NCBI GenBank assembly: GCA_964603525.1
Contig: CAZRVI010000002.1
Span: forward strand, 1-39,190
Direction of reading: 5' to 3'
Source: Candidatus Woesearchaeota archaeon
Lineage (GTDB): Archaea; Nanobdellota; Nanobdellia; SCGC-AAA011-G17; JACPIM01
Length of the DNA stretch: 39,190 nucleotides
The first letter of the stretch is position 1; every line of letters begins with the position of its first letter. The translations under genes were made by a program, and so were the position numbers. This document shows, in pieces, positions 164-21,812 of the stretch. The notes below the pieces were generated by a model. That model was not told the origin of the DNA. It was given only the letters and a program-made list of their open reading frames with translations, and searched no databases.

Positions 164-604
164 TTATTTATTATCAACATTAGTACAATTTTTAATATCA
201 ACATTAACTAATTCACAACTAAATATCAATCCAGGACATTCAATTTCATATTCCGTTTTTTTATTCACACCCTTATCAATATAATCCAAAACTATATTAT
301 ACACACCAGGTTCATTAATTTGAGCAACTCTACTTTTAAAATCAACTTTTTCATCAGAAATATAATCTTTACTCCAACTCCCATTAACCTTAAATTTTAA
401 AATTGTAAAATCCAGAAATGGATCTTTCTTTTCAACAATAACTTCAATATCATTAACATAAATTTTATCATCATCAGAATAAACTTTTAAATTTAAAGAA
501 CCATCTTTCTTACACAAAACCTCATCAAACACTAAATCCCCCCTAACAAATCCAGATATTAAAATTAAAAATACAAAAATCAAAACTAATTTATAAAATC
601 GCAT
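164..604 (-). CDS. hypothetical secreted or membrane-anchored beta-rich protein
   Basis: N-terminal hydrophobic segment (LVLIFVFLILISGFV) followed by a beta-strand-like, Cys-containing body. Its ATG shares one base with the deoA stop (TAATG on the minus strand at 602-606), suggesting co-translation. The motif EPGVYNIVLDY weakly recalls EPGTYYFRLYD of the 4642-6364 paralog family. Confidence 0.55.
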   Translation of the reverse strand: MRFYKLVLIFVFLILISGFVRGDLVFDEVLCKKDGSLNLKVYSDDDKIYVNDIEVIVEKKDPFLDFTILKFKVNGSWSKDYISDEKVDFKSRVAQINEPGVYNIVLDYIDKGVNKKTEYEIECPGLIFSCELVNVDIKNCTNVDNK

Positions 605-2094
605 TATTCAATTTCAATAATCTTAACTTTATTAAAAACATCTAAAGTATAATTCAATCTTTTACTATTCTTAGAATATACAGTCAATAAAACATCACCT
701 TCTTTAACCTTATCTCCTTTATGCACATTTAAATAAATTCCAGCTTCCTTGTCAAATGGTGCACCAGCAATTCTTGCTATTCTTACCAAAGCCTTATTAT
801 CAATTCTTTTTACAACACCATTTTTCTTTGCCTTTACCATATAAGAATACTGCCCAATTTTAATATCTTCTGGTTTAATATCAGGATTACCCTCTTGCTC
901 TTTAATTATTTCCTTAAATTTTTCATATGCTTTACCAGATTCTAAAATCTCTCTTGCAGTTTCCTGATTACCTTTTCCAACCATTTTTAACATTAAACCA
1001 GCTATATGTATTGATTTTTCTTTTAAGTCCTTAGGTGCTCTTACATCATTCATTAAAACATATAAAACATCTCTTGCTTCCAAACTAGGTCCAATTCCAT
1101 TTCCAATAGGTTGTGTTCCATCAGTCATTATAACTTCCATCTTAATACCTAATTTTTTACCTAATTTATAAAACATTTTCCTTAAACGATTAGCTCTTTT
1201 CACACTTTCAATTTTAGCTCCAGGACCATAAGCAATATCAATTAGAACATGCGTAGCATTAACAGCCTTTTTCTTAGCCATTATGCTGCTCAATAAAATA
1301 CCTTCAGGATCTAAACTTAAAGGGTGTTCCATTTTAATTATCTTATCGTCTGCACTTGCTAAATCCATTGCACCACACCAAACAATACAACCATTAGTCT
1401 TCTCCACAATCTCTTTTATTTTATCTGTGGAAAAAGAAACATTTGCAAACACCTCAAAAACATCAGCTGTACCAGCAGCACTTGTAATTGCTCTTGAACT
1501 TGTTTTAGGTATGCAAACACCTGCAGCAGCAATTATAGGCACAACAATCATAGTGGTTCTATTACCAGGAGTCCCACCAGTTCCATGCTTATCTAATATA
1601 ATATTCCTATCTAATTTTAATTGTGCCCCATTATTCACAATAGCATTTGTTAATGCAACAGTTTCATTCATACTTAAGCCATGTGTATAGCATGCAGAAA
1701 CAAAAAATCCTAACTCAACCTCGCTTATTGTATTATCAACAACATCCTTAATAATAGCATTTATTTCCTCACTACTTAATTCTTGTCTATCTAATTTTTT
1801 CTTAATATAACTAATAGAATCAGGCTTTTTTTCAATACTAACATCAACTAACTCATTTTCCTTAACTCCTAATTTATCAAAAACCTCTTCAAACAAACCA
1901 ATTTCTCCGCTTCTAATACCTTTATTCTCGCAAATATTTACAACAGCAACAATATATTTTTCATCCTTCTTTATTTTTACTCTATCTAATGCATGCAAAT
2001 CCATTTTACTAGAATCCTCTTTATTTAATACAACTATTAAAGGACCCCCAGTAGATAAATTAACGTCTTTTACTTTTAGTTTCATGTTTCTCAC
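604..2094 (-). CDS. deoA: AMP phosphorylase (archaeal thymidine-phosphorylase-family enzyme with extra N-terminal domain)
   Basis: 496 aa. The N-terminal MKLKVKDVNLSTGGPLIVVLNKED...LDRVKI domain is typical of archaeal AMP phosphorylases. HGTGGTPGNRTT phosphate-binding motif, and a glycosyl-transferase family 3 core with a C-terminal PYNP-like domain (GDKVKEGDVLLTVYS). The real start could be the internal Met at 2085. Confidence 0.85.
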   Translation of the reverse strand: MRNMKLKVKDVNLSTGGPLIVVLNKEDSSKMDLHALDRVKIKKDEKYIVAVVNICENKGIRSGEIGLFEEVFDKLGVKENELVDVSIEKKPDSISYIKKKLDRQELSSEEINAIIKDVVDNTISEVELGFFVSACYTHGLSMNETVALTNAIVNNGAQLKLDRNIILDKHGTGGTPGNRTTMIVVPIIAAAGVCIPKTSSRAITSAAGTADVFEVFANVSFSTDKIKEIVEKTNGCIVWCGAMDLASADDKIIKMEHPLSLDPEGILLSSIMAKKKAVNATHVLIDIAYGPGAKIESVKRANRLRKMFYKLGKKLGIKMEVIMTDGTQPIGNGIGPSLEARDVLYVLMNDVRAPKDLKEKSIHIAGLMLKMVGKGNQETAREILESGKAYEKFKEIIKEQEGNPDIKPEDIKIGQYSYMVKAKKNGVVKRIDNKALVRIARIAGAPFDKEAGIYLNVHKGDKVKEGDVLLTVYSKNSKRLNYTLDVFNKVKIIEIE

Positions 2095-3162: not shown

Positions 3163-3486
3163 ATGCAAAAAACCATATTAGGTCTAATAGAAAAAATAAA
3201 GATTAATGGTAAGGAATTAAAAGCAAAAATAGACACTGGAGCCCAAGGAAATTCTATAGATATCAAATTAGCTCAAAAGTTAAGATTAGGCCCAATAATA
3301 AAAACATATAAAATTAAAACTTCTGCAGGACATGCAAGAAGACCAGCTGTTAGAGCTCATTTAGAAATTAAAGGAAGAAAGTTTAATACAATCTTCAATG
3401 TAAGTGACAGAAAACACATGGAATATCCTGTGCTAATAGGAAGAAGAATACTTAAAAAAGGTTTCTTAGTAGATGTATCAAAATGA
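3163..3486 (+). CDS. RimB-like retropepsin-fold aspartic protease (the family annotated as putative ATP-dependent zinc protease, DUF785)
   Basis: 107 aa. It has AKIDTGAQGNS (a D-T-G-A active-site signature), then ...RRPAVRAHLEIKGRKF...SDRKHMEYPVLIGRRILKKGFLVD, matching the family pattern. It overlaps the downstream RimK-like gene by ATGA (3483-3486). Confidence 0.8.
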   Translation: MQKTILGLIEKIKINGKELKAKIDTGAQGNSIDIKLAQKLRLGPIIKTYKIKTSAGHARRPAVRAHLEIKGRKFNTIFNVSDRKHMEYPVLIGRRILKKGFLVDVSK

Positions 3487-4574
3487 AACTGGCTATTATA
3501 AGTTTGGGAGGAGAATCCGCTAAAAACATACTTAAAGAAGCAAAAACTTATTTTAAAAAAACAGATTTACTTAATCTTAAAGAAACAGAAGTTCATGTAG
3601 ATTCAAAAAAAATACAAGTTCTATACAAAGAAAAACCAATAGAAGATTATGATTGTATTTATATTAGAGGCTCTTATAAATATTCTCTACTACAAAGATC
3701 ATTAACAAGAGCATTACATCACAAAACTTACATGCCAATTAACCCAGCAGCATTTACAATAGGACATAATAAATTTTTAACTCTGCTTGAATTGCAAAAA
3801 AATAAAATTCCTCTACCCAAAACTTATCTGGCAGCAACTACAAAAGCAGCAAAAAAACTGCTAGAAAAAATACATTATCCTATTATCATGAAAATACCTG
3901 AAGGAACTCATGGTAAAGGAGTTATGTTTGCAGATTCTGAAAGTTCAGCAAGATCCATGATAGACACATTAGAAATATTCAAACAACCATATATCTTACA
4001 AGAATATGTTGAAACAGGAGCAACAGATATAAGAACAATAGTTGCAGGGGATAAAGTAATAGCTTGTATGAAAAGAAAAGCACCTTTAACAGAAATGAGA
4101 GCAAACATACATGCTGGAGGAAAAGGACAACCATATGAACTAGATTATGATACAGAACAAATAGCTATTAAAGCAGCACATGCAATAGGTGCAGAAATCT
4201 GTGCAATTGATATTCTAGAAACAGGAAAAAAGTCAATGGTAATAGAAATTAATCTTTCTCCAGGATTAAAAGGTATAACATCTGTTACTAAAAAAAACAT
4301 AGCAAAAGACATTGCAAAATTTCTAGCAAAAGAAACAAAACAATTTATAGCATCAGCACAAAAAACAGGATATAGCAAAATTATGCAAGAGCTTGAACTA
4401 GAATCAAAAAACAATAAAGAAACTAAAGAAATACTAACTTCATTAAATGTTAAAGAAGGAATAATAAAATTACCCAAGATAATTTCTAAAATATCTAAAT
4501 TAAAATCAGACGATGAAGTAATAATAAAGATAGATAAAGGAAAAATAGAAATTAAAAAACATGAAATTAAATAA
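3483..4574 (+). CDS. rimK: RimK-family ATP-grasp alpha-L-glutamate ligase with ~75 aa C-terminal extension
   Basis: 363 aa. The ATP-grasp core reads HYPIIMKIPEGTHGKGVMFADS...PYILQEYVE...DIRTIVAGDKVIACMKR...RANIHAGG...AIDILE...MVIEINLSPGL. The extra tail (about 4344-4571) ends EGIIKLPKIISKISKLKSDDEVIIKIDKGKIEIKK, which resembles an AbrB/SpoVT swapped-hairpin segment. Confidence 0.85.
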   Translation: MKLAIISLGGESAKNILKEAKTYFKKTDLLNLKETEVHVDSKKIQVLYKEKPIEDYDCIYIRGSYKYSLLQRSLTRALHHKTYMPINPAAFTIGHNKFLTLLELQKNKIPLPKTYLAATTKAAKKLLEKIHYPIIMKIPEGTHGKGVMFADSESSARSMIDTLEIFKQPYILQEYVETGATDIRTIVAGDKVIACMKRKAPLTEMRANIHAGGKGQPYELDYDTEQIAIKAAHAIGAEICAIDILETGKKSMVIEINLSPGLKGITSVTKKNIAKDIAKFLAKETKQFIASAQKTGYSKIMQELELESKNNKETKEILTSLNVKEGIIKLPKIISKISKLKSDDEVIIKIDKGKIEIKKHEIK

Positions 4575-4641: not shown

Positions 4642-5070
4642 TCAATAATGTTTCTTTGGACCTACAGGTTCATACAAAACACCAACTGTAAAGTATGCTT
4701 TTACATATTCTTTACTACCTAAATCATATAATCTAAAGTAATATGTTCCTGGTTCAAAAGCATCTATTAATTTAAATTTAACTTCACTAATATCCTTGCA
4801 TTTATATCTTTTGCATACCTGTGCAGCAGATTGCATATACCTATAATCTGTATCAGCTCTATAAACATCTATATCAGTATCAACACCCTTGCTTCCAGGA
4901 ATTACAGTTAATGTTATAGTTTCACTTGGTAAAGCATATGTTTTATCTAGCATCACAGTTGTTGTTTTTTCTTTAATAGCTTCCCCAGTTATACCTGTAA
5001 AATTAAAACTCACAATAGCAATTAGTAAAATCAAAACAGCCCATACCAAAACTTTATTTTCTTGCCTCAT
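4642..5070 (-). CDS. signal-anchored small beta-rich protein, paralog P1 of a four-member tandem family (unnamed)
   Basis: 142 aa. MRQENK + hydrophobic VLVWAVLILLIAIVSF + NFTGITGE, then VIPGSKGVD, VYR, CKRYKC, EPGTYYFRLYD, and a VKAYFTV tail. GGAG lies 6 nt upstream of the ATG (5077-5080). Confidence 0.75.
   Translation of the reverse strand: MRQENKVLVWAVLILLIAIVSFNFTGITGEAIKEKTTTVMLDKTYALPSETITLTVIPGSKGVDTDIDVYRADTDYRYMQSAAQVCKRYKCKDISEVKFKLIDAFEPGTYYFRLYDLGSKEYVKAYFTVGVLYEPVGPKKHY
4991..5031. repeat. near-identical DNA block shared with 5446-5486 (codes the signal-anchor of P1)
   Basis: Perfect 17-nt (4991-5007 = 5446-5462) and 20-nt (5012-5031 = 5467-5486) matches, separated by a 4-nt spacer with 2 mismatches. 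The flanking coding DNA is much more diverged. Confidence 0.8.
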
Positions 5071-5102
5071 TTTTTACTCCATTATATTTTTATATTTAAA
5101 CT

Positions 5103-5528
5103 TTAATCTACTAGTCTAAACTTAACATCTATATTCTTTCCTGTTTTATGGTTTTTAACTCTTATAACATATGTTCCTTCTGGCCATATTCTTTTATCAT
5201 AAGTTCCTAAGTAATTATAAGTAACTTCTGAAGGTTTATAACAAGTATTTCCAAATCTTCCACACACCCATGCTTTGCTGTTACTCATCCTTCCACCATT
5301 CGCTCTATAAATCCACATATATCTGTTATCTACTCCTTCTTTTGGAGGAATAACCTTAACTTTTATTGTTTCTCCTCTATGTACAATCCCATCAGGATGT
5401 GAAATTATCTTTAATACATCTTTATTTCTTACAAATTCACCTGTCATACCTGTAAAATTAAAGCTAACAATAGCAATTAGTAAAATAAATACTGCTAATA
5501 AAATTGTTTTTGTGTTTTTTTCCATCAT
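5103..5528 (-). CDS. signal-anchored small beta-rich protein, paralog P2
   Basis: 141 aa. MMEKNTKT + ILLAVFILLIAIVSF + NFTGMTGE, then VIPPKEGVD, IYR, CGRFGNTC, PEGTYVIRVKN. GAGGTGAT lies directly upstream of the ATGATG start (5531-5536). Confidence 0.75.
   Translation of the reverse strand: MMEKNTKTILLAVFILLIAIVSFNFTGMTGEFVRNKDVLKIISHPDGIVHRGETIKVKVIPPKEGVDNRYMWIYRANGGRMSNSKAWVCGRFGNTCYKPSEVTYNYLGTYDKRIWPEGTYVIRVKNHKTGKNIDVKFRLVD
5446..5486. repeat. second copy of the signal-anchor DNA block (see 4991-5031)
   Basis: Same perfect 17-nt and 20-nt blocks as in P1. Confidence 0.8.
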
Positions 5529-5538
5529 ATCACCTCAT

Positions 5539-5964
5539 CTATTCTATAACAAATTTGTTTGAATCAAATTTAATATCATTCTTTGAAGTATCATAATTAT
5601 CTCTTTCAGCTCTAAAGAAATATGTTCCTGCTTTATTCCCTGAACTTAACTTATATGTCAAAGTTACATCATCATAACAAATGTTTTTATTACATATTGT
5701 TATACTTTCACTTCCAACCCTTACACTTCCTGTTGGAGTTACTTTATAAAGTCTTAACCATTTATCAACACCCATACTTCCAACATCAACCTTTATTGTT
5801 AATAATTTCATTGTATCATATTTACCGAAACTTACTTTTGTAGGGTTTACAGTAATCTTTGTAATTTGTTCTTTTGTTATTTCACCTGTCATACCTTTAA
5901 AATTATAAGCAACCAATGCCACCAATATTATCAAAACAACAACAATCCATGTTTTGTTTTCCAT
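5539..5964 (-). CDS. signal-anchored small beta-rich protein, paralog P3
   Basis: 141 aa. MENKT + WIVVVLIILVALVAY + NFKGMTGE, then VDVGSMGVD, LYK, CNKNIC, AGTYFFRAER. A strong AAGGAGGT site at 5972-5979 lies 7 nt upstream of the ATG. Confidence 0.75.
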   Translation of the reverse strand: MENKTWIVVVLIILVALVAYNFKGMTGEITKEQITKITVNPTKVSFGKYDTMKLLTIKVDVGSMGVDKWLRLYKVTPTGSVRVGSESITICNKNICYDDVTLTYKLSSGNKAGTYFFRAERDNYDTSKNDIKFDSNKFVIE

Positions 5965-5971
5965 TTAAACA

Positions 5972-5979
5972 ACCTCCTT
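5972..5979 (-). promoter_or_regulatory. Shine-Dalgarno-like ribosome-binding site for P3
   Basis: AAGGAGGT on the minus strand, with a 7-nt spacer to the ATG at 5962-5964. It overlaps the P4 stop codon. Confidence 0.55.
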
Positions 5980-6364
5980 AAGTTATAGTGAAATATGCTT
6001 TCACATAATCATCAATACCATAATCAAATATTTTGACATAATGAATCCCAGGTTCCCAAGCATGTGTGCTAAAACTAAAAGTACTTGTTTCAAGGCATTT
6101 ATAGGAACCACCACAAACTCTGTAAGTACAACCTTTTCTTAAATTATCTTCAGCTTGATAAAAACAAGCTCTTTTATAAACTCCTTTTGGCCCAGGATCC
6201 ACAGTAACATAAATTTTTTGTCCAGGATTTATCACATCAGGTGTTATAGAAATACTGGTTTTGCTCTTTATAACCTCTCCAGTTAAACTATTATAATTAA
6301 ATGAAACTAAAGCAATAACTAAAATAAAAATAGCACCCATTAAAATTCTACTGCTTTTCTCCAT
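5978..6364 (-). CDS. signal-anchored small beta-rich protein, paralog P4
   Basis: The track ORF starts at GTG 6373. I prefer the ATG at 6362-6364 (MEKSSRILMGAIF...) because AGGTGA (6370-6375) sits 5 nt upstream and the N-terminus then matches P1-P3. Motifs: ILVIALVSF + NYNSLTGE, VDPGPKGVY, FYQ, CGGSYKC, EPGIHYVKIFDY, and a VKAYFTIT tail. Confidence 0.75.
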   Translation of the reverse strand: MEKSSRILMGAIFILVIALVSFNYNSLTGEVIKSKTSISITPDVINPGQKIYVTVDPGPKGVYKRACFYQAEDNLRKGCTYRVCGGSYKCLETSTFSFSTHAWEPGIHYVKIFDYGIDDYVKAYFTIT

Positions 6365-6426
6365 TAGTTTCACCTTTTTTTCAATATTATTTAAAAAGTT
6401 ACTTTCTTTAAATACTTTTCGTTTGT

Positions 6427-6621
6427 TTATCTATAAATCATTCTTGTTACAGCATCCATAGCATCAATTCTCATTAACACATAACCTATAACTAATAATA
6501 ATACTAATATCAATATTATCAATGCTGTTAATAGTTTATTTGTTCTTTGTTGCAATATCTGAGAATAAGAAACTTCATATCTTTTAACTTTTCCATTCTT
6601 TCCAGTTAGCTCATACTCCAT
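6427..6621 (-). CDS. hypothetical 64-aa single-pass membrane protein (first gene of the paralog operon)
   Basis: Polar ~30-aa N-terminus, one TM (LLTALIILILVLLLVIGYVLM) and a short tail. It has no SD-like site but does have a TATA-like box ~28 nt upstream, so it is probably the leaderless first cistron. Confidence 0.5.
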   Translation of the reverse strand: MEYELTGKNGKVKRYEVSYSQILQQRTNKLLTALIILILVLLLVIGYVLMRIDAMDAVTRMIYR

Positions 6622-6645
6622 TTTAATTCTAAGAATAATTTACTA

Positions 6646-6653
6646 CTTTAAAA
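6646..6653 (-). promoter_or_regulatory. TATA-box candidate for the 64-aa gene + P4-P1 operon
   Basis: Minus-strand TTTTAAAG centred 28.5 nt upstream of the ATG at 6619-6621. Confidence 0.4.
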
Positions 6654-6709
6654 GAATTTCTAAATCATATAATATATTTTTAAAAATTTATTTCTATCTT
6701 AATTAAAAA

Positions 6710-7182
6710 TTAAATCCCCTCTTTAGTTGTAGTAAATTTCAATTTTTCTAACTGAAACAATCTTTTTCCTTTCTTTTTAAATCTAATACTAACAACTTTA
6801 CCTATAAAAATTATATGATATCCTGCCTCTGCTTCATTAACAACCTTACATTCAACAAAAGCTAATGCATCTTTCAATCTACAACAATTTTTTTCAGCTT
6901 CCTCTTTCTCTAACTTCGCCTCTTTAAATTTATCTATATTCCTCTCAGATCTAGTACCGCAAATAATAACAGCATTCTTCATCTCATAAGGGATATAATT
7001 AATAACAAAACATTTACTTTTTTTAATTAATTCACAACTATATCTTTCTTTCCTACAGAAATTAAATACAAATTTGGCTGAAAAGAAATTTTAGTATGCC
7101 AAGTCATTGCTAATATACTATCTTTATCTTTATATTCTGATGTTATCAAAACAACTTGGCAAGGACAATTTATTTTAGACAT
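6710..7182 (-). pseudogene. flavin reductase-like (FMN-binding split-barrel, DIM6/NTAB-type) gene interrupted by a 1-nt frameshift
   Basis: The minus-strand ATG at 7180-7182 gives MSKINCPCQVVLITSEYKDKDSILAMTWHTKISFQPNLYLISVGKKDIVVN*, the typical N-terminal half, with a stop at 7027-7029. A second frame, open from 7090, reads ...RKERYSCELIKKSKCFVINYIPYEMKNAVIICGTRSERNIDKFKEAKLE...ECKVVNEAEAGYHIIFIGKVV, the typical C-terminal half (the track ORF 6710-6982 is its tail). The two frames join at GGAAAGAAAGA (7043-7054), where one extra A would restore ...ISVGK-K/E-RYSCELIKK... Confidence 0.7.
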
Positions 7183-7183
7183 T

Positions 7184-7879
7184 TTATTCTTTTAGCTTCT
7201 CTAAAACTTTTGGTAATTCATTAATGTCTTTAATAATAGCAAAGGGTTTTTCTTTTTTTAATATTCTTTTTGAATTTACACCAGTTAAAACAGCAATTGC
7301 TTTAGTATTACTTCTCCTTGCAGCAATAATATCGAAAGGACTATCACCAACATGAAATTTAATATCACTTCTCATTAACTTCTCAGCTTTAAATAATTCA
7401 TCAGGATAAGGCTTGCTCCTTTTAACATCATCCTTTCCTATTATAATATCAAACAAACTTTTCTTTAACCCAGCCCCTCTCATTAAAGAATTAATCTCTT
7501 TATGTGTACAATTACTAATCATACCAATTTTATAAATTTTTTTTAGTTTTTTCAATACAGGAACTACACCTTTAATTTTCTTTGCATATTTTCCATATTT
7601 TATACTGATTAATTTATGATGCTCCTTTGTTATTTTATCTACTTCCTTTTCAGAAAGTTTTGGAAATAAGTCTCTAACAACTTGATGAGCATGTCTTCCA
7701 TTCAAAAAAGGGATTAATTTTTGATATTTTATTTTTTTCAAATCAAATTTCTCAAAAGCTTCATTAAACGCCTTCCAATGGCATCTTTTAGCATGAATTA
7801 AGGTTTCATCTAAGTCAAATGTTATTATATATTTTCTTTTACCATTAACTATATTCTTTTTTCCTGTTTTCATATCCAT
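7184..7879 (-). CDS. HAD-superfamily (subfamily IA) phosphatase, phosphoglycolate/sugar-phosphate phosphatase-like
   Basis: Motif I FDLDETLI (DxDxT), motif II ISNCT, motif III K in RSKPYPD, motif IV VGDSPFDI. It overlaps the upstream e2b2-like gene by 10 nt. Confidence 0.8.
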   Translation of the reverse strand: MDMKTGKKNIVNGKRKYIITFDLDETLIHAKRCHWKAFNEAFEKFDLKKIKYQKLIPFLNGRHAHQVVRDLFPKLSEKEVDKITKEHHKLISIKYGKYAKKIKGVVPVLKKLKKIYKIGMISNCTHKEINSLMRGAGLKKSLFDIIIGKDDVKRSKPYPDELFKAEKLMRSDIKFHVGDSPFDIIAARRSNTKAIAVLTGVNSKRILKKEKPFAIIKDINELPKVLEKLKE

Positions 7880-8667
7880 CTATATTTTTTCTTAACTTTT
7901 TTAACAAATTTTTTAGGTTTTAAAACCCCTAATTCAGAAATTATTCCTTTAATATATTTATTTTTAATAATTTCAAAAGCAGGATTCTTAATTTTTATTT
8001 TTTTTGGTAATTTCTTCCAGACTTCTCTGAAATTTCTTTCTTCTATTTTAATATTTCTTGAAGAAAATTTCCATGAATCTGCACAGATATAAACAGGTAT
8101 TTTATAATCATAAGCAATATTAGCAAACATCCCAGAACCAACCTTATTCACAACATCACCATTTTTCAAAATAGCATCAGCACCAAATAAAACAATATGC
8201 TTTTTCTTATGATTTAAAGTCATTGCAATACCAGCAGCAGCATCAACAACTTGTATAACTTTAATACCATCTTTCGCTAATTCTTTTGCAGTTTTCCTTC
8301 CTTGATATAAAGGTCTTGTTTCTGTATTATACACCTTAAATTTTTTACCTTTCTCTTTAGCATATCTTAAAATATTTATTACAGTAGAACTATGACAATG
8401 TGTAAAAACAATTTCTTTAATAACTTTATAACCATAATTAATTATTTTTTTCTGTGATTCAAAAATATGTTCAATAGCTTTTTCTTGTCCATACTTTTTT
8501 GCAAATTTTAAAGAGTTTTTTAATAATGGTTCTGTTGGTCTAACTTTTAATAATTTTTTTTCAGAAAAACCTTTTAAACTCATTGCTTTAATTCCAGCAA
8601 TAGTAATATTAGTAGCCCCTTGAATTTTCACCTCTTTTATTTTTTTTAATAATTCCTTAAAATTCAT
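7870..8667 (-). CDS. e2b2: eIF-2B alpha/beta/delta-family isomerase, probable ribose-1,5-bisphosphate isomerase (short form)
   Basis: 265 aa. IQGATNITIAG, THCHSSTV, VYNTETRPLYQGRKTAKELAKDGI and FGADAILKNGDVVNKVGS are family hallmarks. The R15P-isomerase reading (rather than MTR-1-P isomerase) is inferred from AMP phosphorylase lying in the same window. Confidence 0.65.
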   Translation of the reverse strand: MNFKELLKKIKEVKIQGATNITIAGIKAMSLKGFSEKKLLKVRPTEPLLKNSLKFAKKYGQEKAIEHIFESQKKIINYGYKVIKEIVFTHCHSSTVINILRYAKEKGKKFKVYNTETRPLYQGRKTAKELAKDGIKVIQVVDAAAGIAMTLNHKKKHIVLFGADAILKNGDVVNKVGSGMFANIAYDYKIPVYICADSWKFSSRNIKIEERNFREVWKKLPKKIKIKNPAFEIIKNKYIKGIISELGVLKPKKFVKKVKKKYRWI

Positions 8668-9461: not shown

Positions 9462-10601
9462 ATGAAAATCCCTCCAATCAAAATAAATTTTCCTGAGGAA
9501 TCGGTTAAAAACATAGTCAATTCTGTAAAAGAGAGCTTTAAAACAGGCAATCTAACCTTAAATAAAAATGTAAAGGCATTAGAAGAAGCTTGGAAAACTC
9601 TTACAGGAACAAAATATGCTATTGCAACAAATAGTGGAACATCTTCTATTGAACTGCCATTGAGAGCATTATTATACAAAGATCAACCCGAAGACTGGAC
9701 AGCAGAAAATAAAGAAATAATAATTCCAGCTAATACTTTTATTGCAACAGCAAGTGCAGTTAGAAACTCTTATGCAAAGCCGATTTTAGTTGATGTAACA
9801 GAAAATTTAGTCATGGACCCGGAAGATTTAAAGAAAAAAATAACTGATAAAACAAAAGGAGTTATCTATGTTCATATCGGTGGCTATGTTTCAAAAGAAA
9901 TTTTAGAAATTAAAAAAATATGTGAAGAAAATAATTTATTCCTGATAGAAGATGCTGCACATGCACATGGAACATCTTATGAAGACAAAAAAACAGGAAC
10001 TTTTGGCGATGCTGCTTCATTTTCATTTTATCCAACAAAGATAATTACAAGTGGAGAAGGTGGAATGATAGTTACAGATAACGAAGAAATAAATAAAATT
10101 AGCAGAATGAGAAGGGATCAAGGAAAGTTAAATTTTTCATCAGCAAACTGGGAAATGTTTGGTAATAATTATAGGATGAGTGAAATTCATGCAGCAATAG
10201 GAATAGCCCATACTAATTTATTAAAGGAATTTATTAAAGAAAGAAATTCTATAGCAAAGGTTTATGATAAAGAATTAGAATCAATTAAAGGGATAATCCC
10301 CTTAAAAATTCTCCATTCTAAAAGTAATTACTACAAATATATAGTTTTCTTGGATAATATTGATAAACAAAAATTCAAACAAAATATGAAAGAATTAGGT
10401 GTTTCTTTAAGCGGGGAAGTTTACGAAACTCCATTGCATTTGCAAAAAGCATTTTTAAATTTTGGTTATAAAAAAGGTGATTTTCCAATAGCAGAAAAAG
10501 TTTGTAACAAACATGTCTGCTTGCCAATTTATAACGGAATGAGTACAGAAGAGATAAACTACGTTATAGATTGCATTAAAAAAACATTAGAAGGTGTTTA
10601 A
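9462..10601 (+). CDS. DegT/DnrJ/EryC1/StrS-family PLP-dependent sugar aminotransferase
   Basis: 379 aa. ATNSGTSSIELPL, LIEDAAHAHG, and SFYPTKIITSGEGGMIVTD (PLP lysine in the PTK context) are classic family motifs. Confidence 0.85.
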   Translation: MKIPPIKINFPEESVKNIVNSVKESFKTGNLTLNKNVKALEEAWKTLTGTKYAIATNSGTSSIELPLRALLYKDQPEDWTAENKEIIIPANTFIATASAVRNSYAKPILVDVTENLVMDPEDLKKKITDKTKGVIYVHIGGYVSKEILEIKKICEENNLFLIEDAAHAHGTSYEDKKTGTFGDAASFSFYPTKIITSGEGGMIVTDNEEINKISRMRRDQGKLNFSSANWEMFGNNYRMSEIHAAIGIAHTNLLKEFIKERNSIAKVYDKELESIKGIIPLKILHSKSNYYKYIVFLDNIDKQKFKQNMKELGVSLSGEVYETPLHLQKAFLNFGYKKGDFPIAEKVCNKHVCLPIYNGMSTEEINYVIDCIKKTLEGV

Positions 10602-11682
10602 AATAGCTGAAGAGATAGGTCTTAAAAAAATTGCATTATTCCCTGAAAAAGTAAAAGCAATTAATAATTTAAAAGATAAAAAACAGATCGACTTAACTTA
10701 TCCCATTAGTGTTGAAGTTTCACCAACACATATTTGCAATCACGCCTGTATATGGTGTTCAGATAGAGGTCTAAAATTAAGATCCCCAAATGCAATCTTA
10801 GATAAAGAAGTTATCTTTAAATTATTTGAAGATTTAAAAGATGGTGGAACAAGAGGGGTAGTGATTGAAGGTGGAGGAGAACCTACTTGCTATAAGGACT
10901 TTATTGAAATAGTTAAAAAAGCAAATGAATTAGGACTTTCTCTTGGTTTAGCAACAAATGGGTATATCTATAATTACGAAGAAGTTCTTCCTTTTTTCCA
11001 GTGGATAAGAATTAGTTTAGATGCATCTACTCCAATGGAGTACATTAAAATAAAGGGTATTGACGGATTTGATACAGTTATTAATAATATTAAACAAATG
11101 GTTGAATATAAAAAAAGGAATAACTTAAAATATCCTGTTATAGGGGTAGGTTATGTTGTTTCCACATTAAATTTAGGTAATATAGAAAATCTTGTTAAAC
11201 AACTAAAAGAAATAGGAGTAGATTATGTTTATTTTAGACCAGTTATTGATCATCCTCATTTAGTAAGCAATAAGGACTTAGATTACCTTAACATGCATTC
11301 AACTAAAGAGTTTACAGTTATGACGAAAGGAATGAAAGAAAATGTTTTTATGGGGAATGAAGGTTTTCCATGTGTTGCTCATTCTTTATCTTGTGTAATT
11401 ACATCTGAAGGAGACGTCCACTTGTGTGGAAGATTAAATATTTACGAATGGTTTAACCCTCTTGGGAATCTAAATAAACAAAGTTTTAAGGAAATTTGGG
11501 AAGGAGAAAAAAGAAAAGAACAGGTTATGAAAGTTTTAGATCCTGAGTTTTGTAAAAAATACTGTTTACAATGTAGAATGACAAAATATAATAAATTATT
11601 TTACAATTATAATATAGAAGAAGAACTAAATAAGATAAGTAAGGAAGAGCTTAATTTAATTAAAACAAAAGATTTTATTTAA
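10594..11682 (+). CDS. radical SAM enzyme with SPASM/twitch-like auxiliary Cys motifs
   Basis: CNHACIWC (CX3CX2C; 10735-10758). GGGEP SAM-binding motif (VIEGGGEPT). C-terminal CVAHSLSCVITSEGDVHLC fits CX12GX4C (11371-11427), and CKKYCLQC follows (11551-11574). The start is the GTG at 10594, overlapping the DegT stop; the start is uncertain. Confidence 0.8.
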   Translation: MFKIAEEIGLKKIALFPEKVKAINNLKDKKQIDLTYPISVEVSPTHICNHACIWCSDRGLKLRSPNAILDKEVIFKLFEDLKDGGTRGVVIEGGGEPTCYKDFIEIVKKANELGLSLGLATNGYIYNYEEVLPFFQWIRISLDASTPMEYIKIKGIDGFDTVINNIKQMVEYKKRNNLKYPVIGVGYVVSTLNLGNIENLVKQLKEIGVDYVYFRPVIDHPHLVSNKDLDYLNMHSTKEFTVMTKGMKENVFMGNEGFPCVAHSLSCVITSEGDVHLCGRLNIYEWFNPLGNLNKQSFKEIWEGEKRKEQVMKVLDPEFCKKYCLQCRMTKYNKLFYNYNIEEELNKISKEELNLIKTKDFI

Positions 11683-16551: not shown

Positions 16552-16899
16552 CTAACCAACAAATCCAATTAAACTAATACCCATAATAATTAATAAAATC
16601 CCAATCCATTTTAATTTATTCATTCTTTCATTTAAAAATTTAATTGAAAATATAGAAATCCAGATATAGCTTGAAGAAACTATTGGATATAATATAGAAA
16701 CTTCAACAAACTTTAATAAATATACAAAAATTAAAGCACTAATTCCATATCCAAACAAAGCAAAAATTAATTTATAATTCTTAATAGTCCCCCTAATAGA
16801 AAATCTAAATCTTCTGGAAGCTTGTTTAAATAGGATTGATACATATGCACCAAATATTGAAAATAACAATACTATTATAATAGCTAAAGATTTATGCAT
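16552..16899 (-). CDS. small 4-TM DMT/SMR-like (EamA-type) membrane protein, ArnE/ArnF-like
   Basis: Four hydrophobic segments. The ATG at 16897-16899 is preferred over the track TTG at 16917 because GGAGGT (16904-16909) precedes it. It overlaps the upstream paralog by 8 nt. Confidence 0.6.
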   Translation of the reverse strand: MHKSLAIIIVLLFSIFGAYVSILFKQASRRFRFSIRGTIKNYKLIFALFGYGISALIFVYLLKFVEVSILYPIVSSSYIWISIFSIKFLNERMNKLKWIGILLIIMGISLIGFVG

Positions 16900-17251
16900 T
16901 CTTACCTCCCACACCAATAAAGCTTACTCCTAGTATAATTAATAGAATACCAATAACTTTAAATGAAGTTATAATCTCACTAAAAATTAAAAAACTTAAA
17001 ATCATTACCCAAATATAACTAGTAGCAAAAAAAGGATATAAAGTAGATAAATCCCCTTTTTTCAAAGCTAAAATAAATAATAAAGCTCCAAAAGCATAAC
17101 ACAAAAACCCAAATACTACAAAATAATTCTGAATTAATAACAAAGGATTAAATGAAAATTTAACAGAACCGAATTTAAATAGAATCTGTGCTAGTGAAGT
17201 TAAAGCTGTGCAAATAATAATTAAAATTATAGCCTTAGTGCTTGTACTCAT
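16892..17251 (-). CDS. small 4-TM DMT/SMR-like (EamA-type) membrane protein, ArnE/ArnF-like (paired with 16552-16899)
   Basis: 119 aa with four TM segments. LAQILFKFG...LSTLYPF..SYIWVMILSFLIFSE.I....IGILLIILGV is typical of small multidrug-resistance-like/EamA half-transporters. Confidence 0.6.
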   Translation of the reverse strand: MSTSTKAIILIIICTALTSLAQILFKFGSVKFSFNPLLLIQNYFVVFGFLCYAFGALLFILALKKGDLSTLYPFFATSYIWVMILSFLIFSEIITSFKVIGILLIILGVSFIGVGGKNA

Positions 17252-18163: not shown

Positions 18164-20755
18164 ATGGAAGAATTAGAAAAAAGAAAACAAAAAATATTAG
18201 AATATTTTAAAATTAAAAAAAATTGGATAATTTATCTAATTCTTGCTTTTATTATCTGGTTAAGTGCATTTATAAGAACAAGAAATTTAGTTCATTTAAA
18301 AGGAAAATATCTTTTAGCCCTTGATCCTTATGTATTCTATAGATATGCATCTTATATTGTTGAACATGGGACTTTAATGGCAATAGACACAATGCGTAAT
18401 GTTCCTTTAGGTATTAATACCGGAAATGAAAACATACTTGTAGCATACATTATTGCTTACCTATACAAATTCCTTAATCTATTTATTCCAATGACTTTAA
18501 TGCAATTTGATATCATATATCCAGTTATATTTTTTAGTTTATCTTTAATTGTTTTCTTTCTATTAACAAAAGAATTATTTAATAAAAAAGTAGCGATTCT
18601 TTCTACTCTGTTTTTTGCTGTGATACCAGCTTTTTTATATAGAACAATGTCAGGATTTTCAGAAAAAGAACCTATTGGAATATTTTTTATGTTCCTAGCT
18701 TTTTATTTTTGGATTAAATCTTTTAAATCAATTGAACTAAAAAGAAAATTAATTTTTGCTTCTTTATCAGGAATTTCTACAGGTTTAATGGGTTTAGTAT
18801 GGGGAGGTGTAGGTTTCGTTTTAATTATAATTCCAACTTTTGTATTAGTTGAATTCTTTTTAAATAAACTCAAAAAGCAAGATATTTATGCATATTTTTC
18901 ATGGTTCATCTTGTTTTTAATTTTATTATTTCCCTCACAAAGATATTCTTTATCAGCTCTAATAGAATCCTTTTCTACAGGTTTAGGTTTTCTTGTAGCT
19001 TTTATTTTAATAATAAATTTTATACTTTCTCTAACCTATTTTCAAAATATAAAGAAAAGAATCAATCTACCACACAACATTATTAGTCTAATAATAGCTC
19101 TAATTTTAATAATTATAATTTTATCTTTTCTACAAAATCCTTTTTTTATAATAGATAAATTAAACAAAATAAAATCAGATTTTTTACATCCTATGGGGGG
19201 TTCAAGATTTGAGTTAACAGTAGCAGAAGCACATCAACCATACTTCACTCATTGGAAATCAGAATTTCATCTATTTTTTTATTATTTTTTAATTGGTTCT
19301 ATTTTCTTATTTTATAAATTAGTCAAACCATTAAAAAAATATAAATATCTTTTTACAATTTCTTATTTCCTATTTATTTTAGCATTTATTTATAGTAGAT
19401 ATTCTCCTAATTCGATCTTAAATGGCGAAAATCCACTCTCAGTTTTTCTTTATTTGGGTTCTTTAATCATTTTCATATTTTTAATTTTTATAGTATATCT
19501 TTATACTTATTATAAAGATAAAGAAGCTCATAATTCTTTAATCAGATTAAAAAGTACATATGTTTTTATTCTTATTTGGTTTATATTAATGATAGTGGCT
19601 GCAAGAGGTGCTCTAAGATTAATTATGATGCTTGTTCCTGTAGCTACTATATTAGTTTCTTTTTTAATTTTTGAGGTTATGAAGTACGGGTTAACTCTGA
19701 AAAAAAATTATCAAAAATTACTTTGTTGGTTCTTTATAGTTTTAATAATACTTTTGCCTGTAAAGGGAAGTTTTATCTATTTTTTAAAAACAAATTATGC
19801 CCAAGCAAAAGCAACAGGTCCCAGCTTTAATATTCAATGGCAACAAGCAATGGAATGGGTTAAAAATAATACTTCAGATGATGCAGTATTTGCTCATTGG
19901 TGGGATTATGGATACTGGGTACAAACAATGGGTAATAGAGCAACAATAACTGATGGAGGAAATATGATTACCCCTTGGAATCATTTTATGGGGCGTCATG
20001 TTTTAACTGGAAAAAATTCAACAGAGGCTTTAGAATTTCTAAAAACACATAACGCCTCTTACTTATTAATAATAGCAGATGAAATTGGAAAATACCCTGC
20101 ATATTCAAGCATAGGTTCAGATATTAACTATGATAGATATTCTTATATTCCAACATTTACTCTTAATCCTAAAGATGTACGAGAAACAAGAAATGAAACT
20201 TTATTATTATATAGAGGATCTTTTATTCTTGATGAAGATTTAATTTACCAAAACAAATTATTTCCTAAAAATAATGCTGTAATTGCAGGAATAATACTCC
20301 CTATCCCTGCTATTAATTCTAATAATTCTACAAATATTAATATGGCCCAACCAACAGCAATTTTATTCTATCAAGGACAACAAACAAATATTCCTCTTGA
20401 GTGTGTGTTTTTAAATGGAAAAGAACATAATTATAATAAAGAGGGATTAAAAGGGTGTTTTAGAATTATACCTACAATAGAACAAAATAATCAAGTTAAC
20501 CCTTTAGGAGCGGGTCTTTATTTATCAGAAAAAGTTAGAAATACCTTATTTACGCAAATGTTCTTATTTGATAAAAACTGGAAAGGTTTTAAAAAAGTTT
20601 ATGATGACTCATCTTTTGGTTATCAACTAGCATTTTATAAACCATTTGGAAGACTAGTTGGTCCACTAAAAATCTGGAAGATTTCTTACCCTTCTGATAT
20701 TAAAATAAAAGAAAAATATCTAAGTATATTTTATCCAGAAGGTATACCAGATTAA
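18164..20755 (+). CDS. aglB: archaeal oligosaccharyltransferase AglB (STT3 family)
   Basis: 863 aa with a 13-TM-like N-terminal half. First-loop acidic motif LALDPYVFYRY (D54, 18323-18325). TVAE (a TIXE-type EL5 motif, 19217-19228). WWDYGYW (W579-G583, 19898-19912). Large C-terminal soluble domain. Confidence 0.95.
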   Translation: MEELEKRKQKILEYFKIKKNWIIYLILAFIIWLSAFIRTRNLVHLKGKYLLALDPYVFYRYASYIVEHGTLMAIDTMRNVPLGINTGNENILVAYIIAYLYKFLNLFIPMTLMQFDIIYPVIFFSLSLIVFFLLTKELFNKKVAILSTLFFAVIPAFLYRTMSGFSEKEPIGIFFMFLAFYFWIKSFKSIELKRKLIFASLSGISTGLMGLVWGGVGFVLIIIPTFVLVEFFLNKLKKQDIYAYFSWFILFLILLFPSQRYSLSALIESFSTGLGFLVAFILIINFILSLTYFQNIKKRINLPHNIISLIIALILIIIILSFLQNPFFIIDKLNKIKSDFLHPMGGSRFELTVAEAHQPYFTHWKSEFHLFFYYFLIGSIFLFYKLVKPLKKYKYLFTISYFLFILAFIYSRYSPNSILNGENPLSVFLYLGSLIIFIFLIFIVYLYTYYKDKEAHNSLIRLKSTYVFILIWFILMIVAARGALRLIMMLVPVATILVSFLIFEVMKYGLTLKKNYQKLLCWFFIVLIILLPVKGSFIYFLKTNYAQAKATGPSFNIQWQQAMEWVKNNTSDDAVFAHWWDYGYWVQTMGNRATITDGGNMITPWNHFMGRHVLTGKNSTEALEFLKTHNASYLLIIADEIGKYPAYSSIGSDINYDRYSYIPTFTLNPKDVRETRNETLLLYRGSFILDEDLIYQNKLFPKNNAVIAGIILPIPAINSNNSTNINMAQPTAILFYQGQQTNIPLECVFLNGKEHNYNKEGLKGCFRIIPTIEQNNQVNPLGAGLYLSEKVRNTLFTQMFLFDKNWKGFKKVYDDSSFGYQLAFYKPFGRLVGPLKIWKISYPSDIKIKEKYLSIFYPEGIPD

Positions 20756-20800: not shown

Positions 20801-20828
20801 TTCTTAATTTCTCTTAAATTTGATTAAA

Positions 20829-21812
20829 ATGGAATATCGTTTATTAATTGTTCCTTTACTAAGTTTCATTGTAACTTATTTTGCAACTAGGACTTGGATT
20901 AAAATAGCAAAAAAAGAAAATTTCTTAGTTAAAGATATGAATAAATATAATTCTCCAAAAATACCGGGATATGGGGGAATAGCAGTATTATTTGGATTTT
21001 GTATGGGTATATTTTTTTATATAGCACTCTCTATATTTTATTTTAAAAGAACAATTCATTTAGTTGAAATTTTTGCATTATTAACAACAATTCTTATTAT
21101 TGCTTTTATAGGTATGCTAGATGATACTCTTGGATGGAAAAGAGGTTTAAAAAAATGGCAAAAACCCTTGTTAACAATACCAGCAGCAATACCTTTAATG
21201 GCTATTAATGCTGGATTTACAAGGATTTATGTTCCTTTTTTAGGACCAATCAATATAGGTTTATTATACCCTCTAATTTTAATTCCATTAGGTATTATTG
21301 GAGCTTCTCAAGGTTTTAACATGCTTGCAGGCTTAAATGGATTAGAAGCAGGTCTAGCTTCCATTATTTTATTTACATTAGGATTTATATCTTGGCAAAA
21401 CAATGAACCATGGATAGCTTTAATTTGCTTATCTATAGTTGTTTCATTAATCGCTTTCTGGTTCTTTAATAAATACCCTGCAAAAGTTTTTTCAGGTGAT
21501 GTTTTAAGATATCCATTAGGTGCTATAATAGCAGGCATAGCTATTCTTGGAAACATAGAAAAAGCAGCATTAATTTTGTTTATTCCATACTTCCTAGAAT
21601 TTTTTATTAAACTTAAAAATAAATTTAAAACAGAATGTTTTTTAATACCTCAAAAAGACAATTCTTTAAAACCTCCAGAAAAAATTGGTTCTTTAACCCA
21701 TATTATTGCTAAATTATTAAATAAAATTAAAAATAAAGTATATGAAAATGATATAGTTTACTCATTATATTGTTTTGAATTAGTATTAGCTATTATTGTT
21801 TTGCACTTGTAA
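20829..21812 (+). CDS. aglH: UDP-GlcNAc:dolichyl-phosphate GlcNAc-1-phosphate transferase (AglH/Alg7-type polyprenyl-phosphate HexNAc-1-P transferase)
   Basis: About 10 TM segments. MLDDTLGWKRGLKKWQK and NMLAGLNGLEAGLA are the eukaryote/archaeal-type version of the MraY/WecA-family motifs. FSGDVLRYPLGA is also present. The track start is TTG 20820; ATG 20829 is preferred. Confidence 0.8.
   Translation: MEYRLLIVPLLSFIVTYFATRTWIKIAKKENFLVKDMNKYNSPKIPGYGGIAVLFGFCMGIFFYIALSIFYFKRTIHLVEIFALLTTILIIAFIGMLDDTLGWKRGLKKWQKPLLTIPAAIPLMAINAGFTRIYVPFLGPINIGLLYPLILIPLGIIGASQGFNMLAGLNGLEAGLASIILFTLGFISWQNNEPWIALICLSIVVSLIAFWFFNKYPAKVFSGDVLRYPLGAIIAGIAILGNIEKAALILFIPYFLEFFIKLKNKFKTECFLIPQKDNSLKPPEKIGSLTHIIAKLLNKIKNKVYENDIVYSLYCFELVLAIIVLHL

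Follow-up and report, generated by a model that had tools for sequence, protein, structure and literature searches.

Small archaeal envelope proteins that combine an N-terminal helix with an immunoglobulin-like (Ig-like) domain are a known kind of protein, as is the Ig-like fold itself. The accessory archaellum protein FlaF, for example, is monotopic, carries an N-terminal helix and no class III signal, and presents an Ig-like sandwich that forms a dimer in the pseudoperiplasm (PMC4425475). ArlF and ArlG (FlaF and FlaG) keep their helix uncleaved, act as oligomers at the interface of membrane and surface layer (S-layer), and are encoded as more than one paralog side by side. In archaeal type IV pilins and archaellins, a hydrophobic N-terminal helix is conserved and the beta-sandwich variable, with multiple paralogs at a locus. 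Sulfolobus threads and chaperone–usher pilins derive from several small Ig-like paralogs with N-terminal export signals in one operon. Here we analyse a 39,190-nucleotide stretch from a Candidatus Woesearchaeota archaeon (contig CAZRVI010000002.1 of assembly GCA_964603525.1; hereafter the window), in which a minus-strand operon encodes a 64-residue single-pass transmembrane protein, tm64, followed by four paralogs, A to D, each consisting of an N-terminal helix, an [ILF]-[TS]-G hinge and a single Ig-like domain. Tentatively, and with somewhat less than even confidence, we propose that the operon encodes a membrane-tethered, glycan-free heteromeric Ig complex together with tm64, built like ArlF/ArlG. 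The sequence family, the TG-hinge leader, the dedicated 64-residue partner, the lineage-wide operon and the avoidance of N-glycosylation sequons all appear to be undescribed; every database name is ‘hypothetical’, and the literature searched on Woesearchaeota and DPANN archaea contained no description of the family or operon and offered only architectural analogies.

The operon proteins resemble ArlF/ArlG in being small, in having an N-terminal membrane helix that lacks a class III signal and leads into a single Ig-like beta-sandwich, and in being encoded by neighbouring paralogs; their helix, like that of ArlF/ArlG, would remain uncleaved. They nevertheless share no detectable sequence similarity or preferential structural similarity with ArlF/ArlG, and no FlaF or FlaG chain was returned by a PDB profile search up to E = 10. 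The operon does not lie in an arl operon, has no ArlH, ArlI or ArlJ nearby, and differs in its three to five paralogs with a dedicated 64-residue transmembrane partner, its invariant TG hinge and its Cys-loop staple. Membership of the FlaF family therefore fails on sequence, structure ranking and genomic context.

The four paralogs share a series of ordered motifs, listed here in the order A, B, C, D: the junction between helix and domain (NYNSLTGE, NFKGMTGE, NFTGMTGE and NFTGITGE), a G-V-(D/Y) motif (PGPKGVY, VGSMGVD, PPKEGVD and PGSKGVD), a Cys loop (CGGSYKC, CNKNIC, CGRFGNTC and CKRYKC) and an EPG-like string (EPGIHYVKIFD, AGTYFFRAER, PEGTYVIRVKN and EPGTYYFRLYD). Given their pairwise identity of 22–38%, and because paralog D as sole query retrieves an ortholog of paralog C from a 5.8-billion-protein database at E = 1.8e-8, this likeness is not due to chance and the four are homologs. 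Paralog B carries a Cys91-x4-Cys96 loop, C a Cys89-x6-Cys96 loop, and D a Cys86-x4-Cys91 loop and a 13-residue C-terminal tail. At least 90% of 120 diverse family members have a Cys pair spaced by 3–7 residues, and one third of members have four Cys, including paralog A (positions 67, 79, 84 and 90).

AlphaFold2 monomer models of paralogs D and B, built from 32–33 aligned homologs each, both reach a mean predicted local distance difference test score (pLDDT) of 85. The model of D (predicted template-modelling score 0.67) comprises a helix at residues 3–26, a low-confidence hinge at 26–33 and a seven-strand sandwich at 38–129, and that of B a helix at 3–25 and an Ig-like sandwich of seven to eight strands. 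Both sandwiches are complete, with pLDDT >90 over most of the domain, and the stretch with pLDDT <50 sits exactly at the (N)F-x-G-x-T-G motif between helix and sandwich. The top Foldseek match of D is a macroglobulin (MG) domain of alpha2-macroglobulin (2p9r; E = 7.7e-6, target-normalised template-modelling score 0.62), followed by MG domains of C3/C4 and generic Ig domains; B matches best the V-set Ig domains of CTLA-4, PD-1 and VNAR (E about 2e-4), and MG and V-set matches of the two models together span E = 7.7e-6 to 1e-3 and scores of 0.5–0.62. The models predict a shared Ig-like fold; because the two paralogs match different Ig subclasses, its likeness to solved domains is at fold level only, and no specific functional family could be assigned from the Foldseek matches of B and D. 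The original prediction had proposed a small Ig-like body with a disulfide loop, common to all paralogs; the models, the Foldseek matches and the widespread Cys pair agree with it, and the predicted sandwich recurs in both of the modelled proteins.

No model in Pfam or NCBIfam scored above its cut-off for the five operon proteins, the 120 diverse members yielded no recurrent Pfam family and none above cut-off, and PDB sequence and profile searches with three profiles returned nothing except one marginal archaellin (7txi, E = 0.014), so the proteins are, as first supposed, without a named family. An exhaustive profile search recovered 406 representative clusters (defined at 50% identity) at E < 1e-3, 179 of them at E < 1e-10. 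Most are single-domain proteins of 125–170 residues with the same N-terminus as the operon paralogs, and some are tandem arrays of 2–11 domain copies inside large proteins. Named relatives of the operon proteins come from ‘Candidatus Woesearchaeota’ metagenome-assembled genomes (MAGs) or from MAGs that NCBI labels ‘Nanoarchaeota’, and scans of viral contigs with both the Ig and the tm64 family found no relatives. The MG domains of alpha2-macroglobulin and C3/C4 and the V-set and I-set Ig domains belong to the same fold class, a seven- to eight-strand Ig-like sandwich, but share only 9–23% sequence identity with the operon proteins, which are single domains on what would be a membrane tether rather than multi-domain protease traps or receptors. 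Neither MG2 nor A2M was matched by Pfam in the four paralogs or the 120 members.

The completeness of the predicted sandwiches bears on whether these proteins could build a fibre by donor-strand exchange. Subunits of such fibres have an incomplete Ig fold, and the missing strand is supplied by the N-terminal extension of a neighbour; here, the linker left after cleavage of the leader would insert into the next sandwich. The presence of several small Ig-like paralogs per operon would suit this arrangement, as would a resemblance, seen by eye, of F-N-F-T-G to the F-x-V-x-G last strand and linker of tandem-repeat relatives. In the models of B and D, however, seven to eight strands are in place at pLDDT >90 and none is missing, the linker after the TG is short and poorly conserved, and no thread or usher structure is among the Foldseek matches. 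The operon also differs from the thread and usher systems in having no usher or chaperone, and we consider this explanation highly improbable.

The five genes are strictly linked. In 21 of 21 loci besides the window that hold a true tm64 homolog (2 found by protein look-up, 2 in reference genomes and 17 in metagenomes), family paralogs come after tm64 on the same strand, and on short contigs, too, the beginning of the first paralog can be seen behind it. Three paralogs follow in locus L007, four in the window, L001, L002, L003 and L008, and five in L009 and L018; in L010, L016 and L019 there are at least four or five before the contig ends. The pairing of the small gene with a set of paralogs, first described from the window, thus extends to every one of these loci. 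The sole exception to the linkage is L022, whose weak match (40% identity, E = 1.6e-7) probably does not represent an ortholog. Because other contigs carry the orthologs in unchanged order, and because the ratio of nonsynonymous to synonymous substitution rates (dN/dS, omega) is 0.18–0.50, the open reading frames (ORFs) represent real genes.

The partner protein is itself well conserved. It consists of a 29-residue basic N-terminal tail (net +3) that is presumably cytoplasmic, one transmembrane helix and a conserved 14-residue C-terminal tail (IDxxDxxxRxIY). The N-terminal tail carries the motif YEVSYSQxLQ, in which the 7 positions YE.S.SQ.LQ are invariant; a further 12 positions of the protein are near-invariant across the same 56 homologs. 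All 93 homolog clusters of tm64 are unnamed and come from Woesearchaeota or ‘Nanoarchaeota’ MAGs; neither its own sequence nor the 56 homologs revealed relatives in Pfam, and matches in the PDB were noise driven by the transmembrane segment. The surroundings of the operon are conserved as well, in the order IF-2B-family gene, HAD hydrolase, sometimes RuBisCO, the operon, and a convergent pair of RimK and a RimB-like protease. This flanking synteny is listed for six loci, and in L003, L008, L009 and L018 the flank genes were recognised solely by N-terminal similarity to the Pfam-annotated genes of the window. Because it is conserved, the operon is a vertically inherited core locus rather than a variable island.

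All five genes are under purifying selection. Orthologs in the window, L001 and L002, paired one-to-one by gene order, gave Nei–Gojobori dN/dS values of 0.18–0.21 for tm64, 0.18–0.26 for A, 0.18–0.50 for C and 0.31–0.37 for D, against 0.12 for the neighbouring RimK gene; the comparison of orthologous arrays that the original prediction had recommended therefore places every omega below 1. Evolution is fastest in the Ig domains of B, C and D (omega 0.22–0.62), and the N-terminal helix is under tighter constraint than the Ig domain. In paralog B, the N-terminal 30 residues show dN = 0 despite dS of 0.49–1.07, so their identity is held by selection rather than by recent gene conversion, and in C and D the N-terminal segment is 87–100% identical, compared with 59–75% for the Ig domains.

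The paralogs also persist as distinct types. Paralog C has orthologs in L001 and L002 that are 65–78% identical, and A-type and B-type orthogroups are recognisable across distant loci at 30–52% domain identity. Paralog A is the subtype best conserved across lineages, with domain-only top matches of 39–47% in L008, L009, L010, L016, L018 and L019, in all six of which it takes another place in the operon; its position shifts from first in the window and L003 to fourth or fifth in L008, L009, L016 and L018. The B type recurs in L003, L007, L008, L009 and L016. Because these orthogroups can be traced so far, the duplications are old and their copies kept as distinct types, a pattern that points to non-interchangeable subunits rather than to a recently diversifying adhesin repertoire.

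The leader that precedes the Ig domain is stereotyped across 120 representatives. It has an N-terminal region with a median of 6 residues that usually ends in K, a hydrophobic stretch of about 16–18 residues and a c-region of about 7, and the distance from the last N-terminal charge to the hinge Gly is 23 residues (interquartile range 23–24). The hinge follows the profile I (40%), L (30%) or F (10%), then T (83%) or S (16%), then G (100%), then K/Q/R/E, A/V and T/V/I; ahead of it comes a recurrent A..(S/A)-F-N-F stretch and behind it a short, poorly conserved linker, with the Ig domain beginning about 5–10 residues past the hinge. The N-terminal stubs are K-rich, in agreement with the positive-inside rule. 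The hinge fits the −3/−1 rule of signal peptidase I, and the lengths of the n-, h- and c-regions are compatible with a signal peptide. The conservation and fixed length of the segment argue for its retention, and a role as signal anchor is plausible.

These same features allow a reading in which the leader is a cleavable Sec signal peptide that signal peptidase I cuts after [ILF]-[TS]-G. Four unglycosylated Ig proteins of about 11–12 kDa would then be released into the pseudoperiplasm or the medium, as soluble binders or as parts of a non-covalent envelope assembly, and tm64 would be an accessory or unrelated co-transcribed gene. I/L/F at −3 (80%), T/S at −2 (99%) and G at −1 (100%), followed by a charged or polar residue, would make an acceptable cleavage site, the n/h/c layout of 6, about 16–17 and about 7 residues would suit it, the hinge is disordered in the models of B and D, and tandem-repeat relatives of the same domain bear ordinary cleavable signals. 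Related leaders on unrelated proteins, described below, may moreover mean that the motif is a lineage-wide export signal. Yet ordinary cleaved signal peptides are not conserved to this degree; a leader that is more constrained than the mature domain and fixed in length is atypical of them and favours retention of the helix. Signal peptidase I does not require a near-invariant T at −2, the strict linkage to the conserved membrane protein tm64 would be left unexplained, and no leader of this type was found on any other ORF of the window or of 22 loci (the non-family ORFs of 23 sequences). We therefore judge secretion unlikely, while allowing it an appreciable chance.

Outside these sequences, a 211-residue protein on a 2.4-kb Logan contig (P0032) carries the leader …ILFAVLILLISVISFNFTGMTGAV… on an unrelated C-terminal region with several hydrophobic segments (polytopic); because of this fusion, the helix and TG module is portable and not exclusive to the Ig family. 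In L003, from one Woesearchaeota MAG, a 222-residue Cys-rich acidic secreted protein encoded between the HAD gene and tm64 (3705–4373) has a looser motif, …IYQEVNLTGYTV… (‘NLTGYTV’), after a hydrophobic segment, and the end of L004 encodes the C-terminus of a protein resembling it, just upstream of tm64. The tandem-repeat relatives P0033, P0034, P0037 and P0061 carry an F-x-V-x-G-S/G… inter-repeat linker about 18 residues before the next ‘SP’ strand, which by eye is collinear with the F-N-F-x-G…TG… segment of the operon proteins; this suggests that the helix replaced the last strand of an upstream domain.

N-glycosylation sequons are strongly avoided in the operon-type Ig domains. With expected counts taken from per-protein shuffles, the 120 family members (13,638 residues) contain 11 N-x-S/T sequons against 117.8 ± 8.3 expected (z = −12.8), a 0.09-fold frequency or about 11-fold depletion. 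The 46 operon-encoded proteins of the fetched loci contain 2 against 38.9 (z = −6.3), and the four Ig domains of the window contain none. The other ORFs of the window, by comparison, have 68 sequons against 60.7 expected (ratio 1.12), and 13 tandem-repeat relatives have 127 against 67.5, a 1.9-fold enrichment (z = +8.2). Control patterns in the 120 members stay close to expectation (S/T-x-N, 124 against 117; D-x-S/T, 0.97; Q-x-S/T, 0.98; N-x-A/G, 1.04), which together with the two control protein sets rules out a composition artefact as the cause. A cytoplasmic domain would be neutral with respect to sequons; the depletion therefore implies that the Ig domains meet oligosaccharyltransferase and that N-glycans on them are selected against. 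The domains are thus predicted to be extracytoplasmic, consistent with both the Cys loop and the positive-inside rule; the window does encode an AglB/STT3 oligosaccharyltransferase (Table 1). The original prediction had hinted at a functional link between the paralogs and the adjoining glycosylation island, an idea that does not fit domains so depleted in acceptor sites.

Archaeal S-layers and surface filaments are described as being, for the most part, heavily glycosylated, and sequon avoidance separates the operon proteins from ordinary surface modules, their own tandem relatives included. These tandem-repeat proteins (P0033, P0034, P0037, P0060, P0143 and others) are homologous to the operon domains at E values down to 2e-40 and share their G-V-D, C-x-C and G-x-Y landmarks, but have 2–11 domain copies, ordinary cleavable signals, no TG leader and enriched sequons. 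Their additional modules include an S_layer_C-like domain, an S8 subtilase, a dockerin with a C25 peptidase, and discoidin. They reach MG2 (17.8 bits against a cut-off of 32.8) and A2M_BRD at sub-threshold level, with no stretch significant alone, and in a cluster look-up the sole taxon name attached to them was Methanobacteriota.

The existence of these large surface proteins lends some appeal to the function first suggested for the operon, namely surface adhesins or host-interaction modules in a diversified tandem set that stays variable so as to engage host cells. The Ig-like fold seen in the models and in Foldseek would be suitable, the same domain is arrayed in proteins with S-layer-like, subtilase, dockerin or discoidin modules, evolution is faster in the B, C and D Ig domains than in tm64 or RimK, and the organism is a DPANN archaeon that probably depends on a host. 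Against diversification, however, stand subtypes that are ancient and orthologously kept one-to-one, omega values that are all below 1, and a syntenic core locus in place of a variable island. Because the Ig domain starts about 5–10 residues past the hinge, an uncleaved protein would sit on the membrane and not beyond the S-layer, its linker being too short to pass the cell wall, and it is the sequon-rich tandem relatives, not the sequon-depleted operon domains, that resemble ordinary surface proteins. We give the adhesin repertoire only a slim chance of being the right description.

A further possibility is a thin filament or short pseudopilus with the paralog helices as its core. The paralogs would then act as one major and several minor subunits of a non-canonical type IV pilin-like or archaellin-like kind, with the machinery encoded elsewhere and tm64 as a platform or anchor. 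Archaeal pilins share a conserved H-domain (PMC4371748), and the operon proteins likewise combine a conserved hydrophobic N-terminal helix with a variable Ig-like beta domain in several paralogs per operon. Marginal profile matches point the same way: Pilin_N at E about 0.08–0.13 in two window paralogs and at E = 0.005 in 2 of the 120 members, and the crenarchaeal archaellin 7txi over the helix and a ‘PGxEGVD’ stretch. Archaellin-like proteins without detectable signal peptides have also been reported in another DPANN archaeon (bioRxiv 10.1101/2023.10.27.564410). A class III site, however, has a charged residue at −2 and G, A or S at −1, ahead of the H-domain (PMC4371748), and such a site is found in 0 of 4 window paralogs and, by a loose pattern, in 7 of the 120 members; the residue after the last N-terminal charge is I, V, T or N in 101 of 118 scored members. 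Filing the paralogs as pilins was rejected on this test.

The remaining evidence on a filament also runs counter to it. Pilin_N (PF07790) scores 13.5–14.3 bits in the two paralogs against a cut-off of 25.2; 7txi is a lone marginal archaellin, with no other archaellin or pilin up to E = 10; and no pilin or archaellin structure is among the Foldseek top 50 for B or D. In the monomer models, a flexible Gly hinge parts the helix from the domain, in place of the continuous helix packed on a sheet. There is no prepilin-peptidase site in the proteins, and no PilB/ArlI, PilC/ArlJ or prepilin peptidase gene in the 39-kb window or in the flanks listed for six loci. Several characterised archaeal pilins carry N-glycosylation sequons (PMC4371748), which the operon domains avoid. 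A filament is in our estimate improbable.

We return, then, to a membrane-tethered complex like that of ArlF/ArlG. The operon products would together form one hetero-oligomeric complex at the outer side of the Woesearchaeota cell's cytoplasmic membrane, as suggested by the strict linkage to tm64 in 21 of 21 loci and by the ancient, retained subtypes. Each of the three to five distinct paralogs would be inserted with its N-terminus in the cytoplasm and kept tethered by its conserved helix, through a 6-residue cytoplasmic stub, the hydrophobic stretch and an F-N-F interfacial belt. The [ILF]-[TS]-G hinge and the 5–10-residue linker would place the disulfide-looped Ig domain directly on the membrane, and the paralog helices may bundle with one another and with the single helix of tm64, whose basic tail would face the cytoplasm. 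If the Ig domains pack tightly on each other or on a partner, they would need to remain free of N-glycans, and the whole could serve as a membrane-proximal pedestal or connector, like the ArlF/ArlG beta-sandwich proteins of the archaeal pseudoperiplasm.

Several points weigh against such a complex. Retention of the helix is a prediction: the hinge followed by K/Q/R/E also satisfies the −3/−1 rule of signal peptidase I, while n/h/c proportions of 6/16–17/7 would suit a long Sec signal peptide. The locus has no linked partner, S-layer protein or machinery gene, and its neighbours are metabolic; the number (three to five) and order of paralogs vary by lineage, so stoichiometry is not fixed; and neither FlaF nor FlaG is among the Foldseek top 50 for the models of B and D. 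A more speculative reading, and one we regard as a long shot, is that the operon forms a Woesearchaeota-specific, glycan-free Ig layer or patch, lying no more than a few nanometres from the membrane and linked to the cytoplasm by tm64, which would mediate very close apposition of membrane to membrane or membrane to wall. This might occur, for example, at a site of host contact or a cytoplasmic bridge, where bulky N-glycans would block tight contact. If true, it would represent an archaeal cell-junction apparatus of a new kind, with no relation to pili, archaella or S-layers.

The sequence of the operon agrees closely with its original description. All five minus-strand ORFs are present in the ORF listing at their predicted coordinates (Table 1), with gaps of 62, 13, 10 and 32 nt in the order tm64/A/B/C/D where 10–62 nt had been noted, and every motif string quoted for them occurs as written. 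The operon region has a G+C content of 27–28%. Shine–Dalgarno-like sites precede the four paralogs (AGGTGA at 6375–6370 for A, AAGGAGGT for B, GAGGTGAT for C and GGAG for D), inspection of the sequence upstream of tm64 revealed none, and a T7-C-T7 run directly follows the stop codon of paralog D, all as first reported. Archaeal transcription termination uses oligo-T tracts, so this run is likely an oligo-T terminator. The listed ORF of paralog A begins at a GTG (6373) that falls within the AGGTGA ribosome-binding site; its orthologs begin at the ATG equivalent to 6364. The leaderless start proposed for the first gene gained support from comparison: in 19 of 19 upstream regions, the window itself included, the stretch at about −34 to −25 from the tm64 ATG contains a TTTATAAA or TTTTAAA box, with no Shine–Dalgarno site upstream of tm64 in any of them. 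Given the usual archaeal distance from TATA box to start, these features support a tm64 transcript with, probably, no leader or a very short one. Between tm64 and paralog A, the 62-nt spacer (6365–6426) holds an A/T box of its own, TATTTAAAG, about 45 nt upstream of the paralog A ATG, a candidate internal promoter from which the paralogs could be expressed above tm64.

Table 1 Features of the operon and of the surrounding window.
Feature	Position	Strand	Remark
TATA-like box TTTTAAAG	6646..6653	-	−32 to −25 from the tm64 ATG
tm64, 64 aa, single-pass membrane protein	6427..6621	-	ORF
Paralog A, 128 aa, helix + NYNSLTG hinge + Ig-like domain	5978..6364	-	ORF, ATG start
Paralog B, 141 aa, helix + NFKGMTG hinge + Ig-like sandwich	5539..5964	-	ORF, AlphaFold2 model
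Paralog C, 141 aa, helix + NFTGMTG hinge + Ig-like domain	5103..5528	-	ORF
Paralog D, 142 aa, helix + NFTGITGE hinge + Ig-like sandwich	4642..5070	-	ORF, AlphaFold2 model
T7-C-T7 run directly 3′ of paralog D stop codon	4627..4641	-	Sequence; likely terminator
ORF, 146 aa	164-604		No significant Pfam match
AMP-phosphorylase-like gene	604-2094		Window
AI-2E transporter			Window neighbour
RimB-like aspartyl/Zn protease + RimK ATP-grasp	3163-4574		Convergent with operon
HAD hydrolase			Window neighbour
Flavin-reductase-like gene, split	6710-7182	-	ORF 7027-7182, Flavin_Reduct positions 4-44; ORF 6710-6982, positions 70-138
IF-2B-family gene	7870-8667		Probably ribose-1,5-bisphosphate isomerase
Glycosylation island, ~30 kb	about 8668-39129		Adjoins operon region
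Radical-SAM/SPASM protein	10594-11682		Glycosylation island
Two adjacent half-size EamA genes (121 and 119 aa)	16552-17251	-	Overlap of 26 nt
AglB/STT3	18164-20755		Glycosylation island
GT4-family phosphotransferase	20820-21812		Glycosylation island
ORF, 423 aa	23663-24934		Inside glycosylation island; no significant Pfam match
B12-binding radical-SAM enzyme	35171-36541		Glycosylation island
ORF, 126 aa	38749-39129		No significant Pfam match

The operon is flanked by archaeal AMP/nucleoside salvage genes, namely the AMP-phosphorylase-like and IF-2B-family genes. A functional link of the operon to these or to the RimK/RimB-like pair was dropped, the adjacency being conserved synteny of convergent or unrelated genes. 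Genes whose N-termini closely resemble those of the RimB-like protease and RimK are found at the corresponding place in L002, L007, L008, L009 and L018, with Pfam annotation only in L002, and in L001 and L002 a gene for diphthine–ammonia ligase separates the operon from that place. Directly upstream of tm64, L001 (5149–6417) and L007 (3684–4928) have a form III-like RuBisCO, which is not at that position in the window. The flavin-reductase-like gene of the window is split, with about 25 profile positions missing between its two ORFs, and is probably a pseudogene or an assembly error; L003, L007 and L008 have no flavin reductase gene at this position.

Besides the genes in Table 1, the glycosylation island encodes at least eight glycosyltransferases, two PMT_2-like membrane enzymes, two DegT aminotransferases, a carbamoyltransferase, a polysaccharide deacetylase and methyltransferases. 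The pair of overlapping EamA genes may be either a heterodimeric two-gene transporter or a split gene. Of the three ORFs that lack a significant Pfam match, the 423-residue one shows only a sub-threshold match to a nucleotidyltransferase (Polbeta).

Woesearchaeota are abundant, uncultured and probably host-dependent, and their surface biology is mostly annotated as ‘hypothetical’. The locus described here is a lineage-wide syntenic gene set under purifying selection that consists only of unnamed proteins, and it defines an Ig-like domain family together with an N-terminal helix and [ILF]-[TS]-G module that are absent from Pfam, NCBIfam and the PDB. We infer the function of the operon; its evolutionary signal is solid and unusually clean. 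The 11-fold depletion of sequons is a rare quantitative signal that domains are exposed to oligosaccharyltransferase yet kept bare, and sequon depletion may be usable as a general bioinformatic marker of tightly packed archaeal envelope components. If the complex acts in host contact, it would be a candidate for a missing piece of the attachment between DPANN archaea and their hosts.

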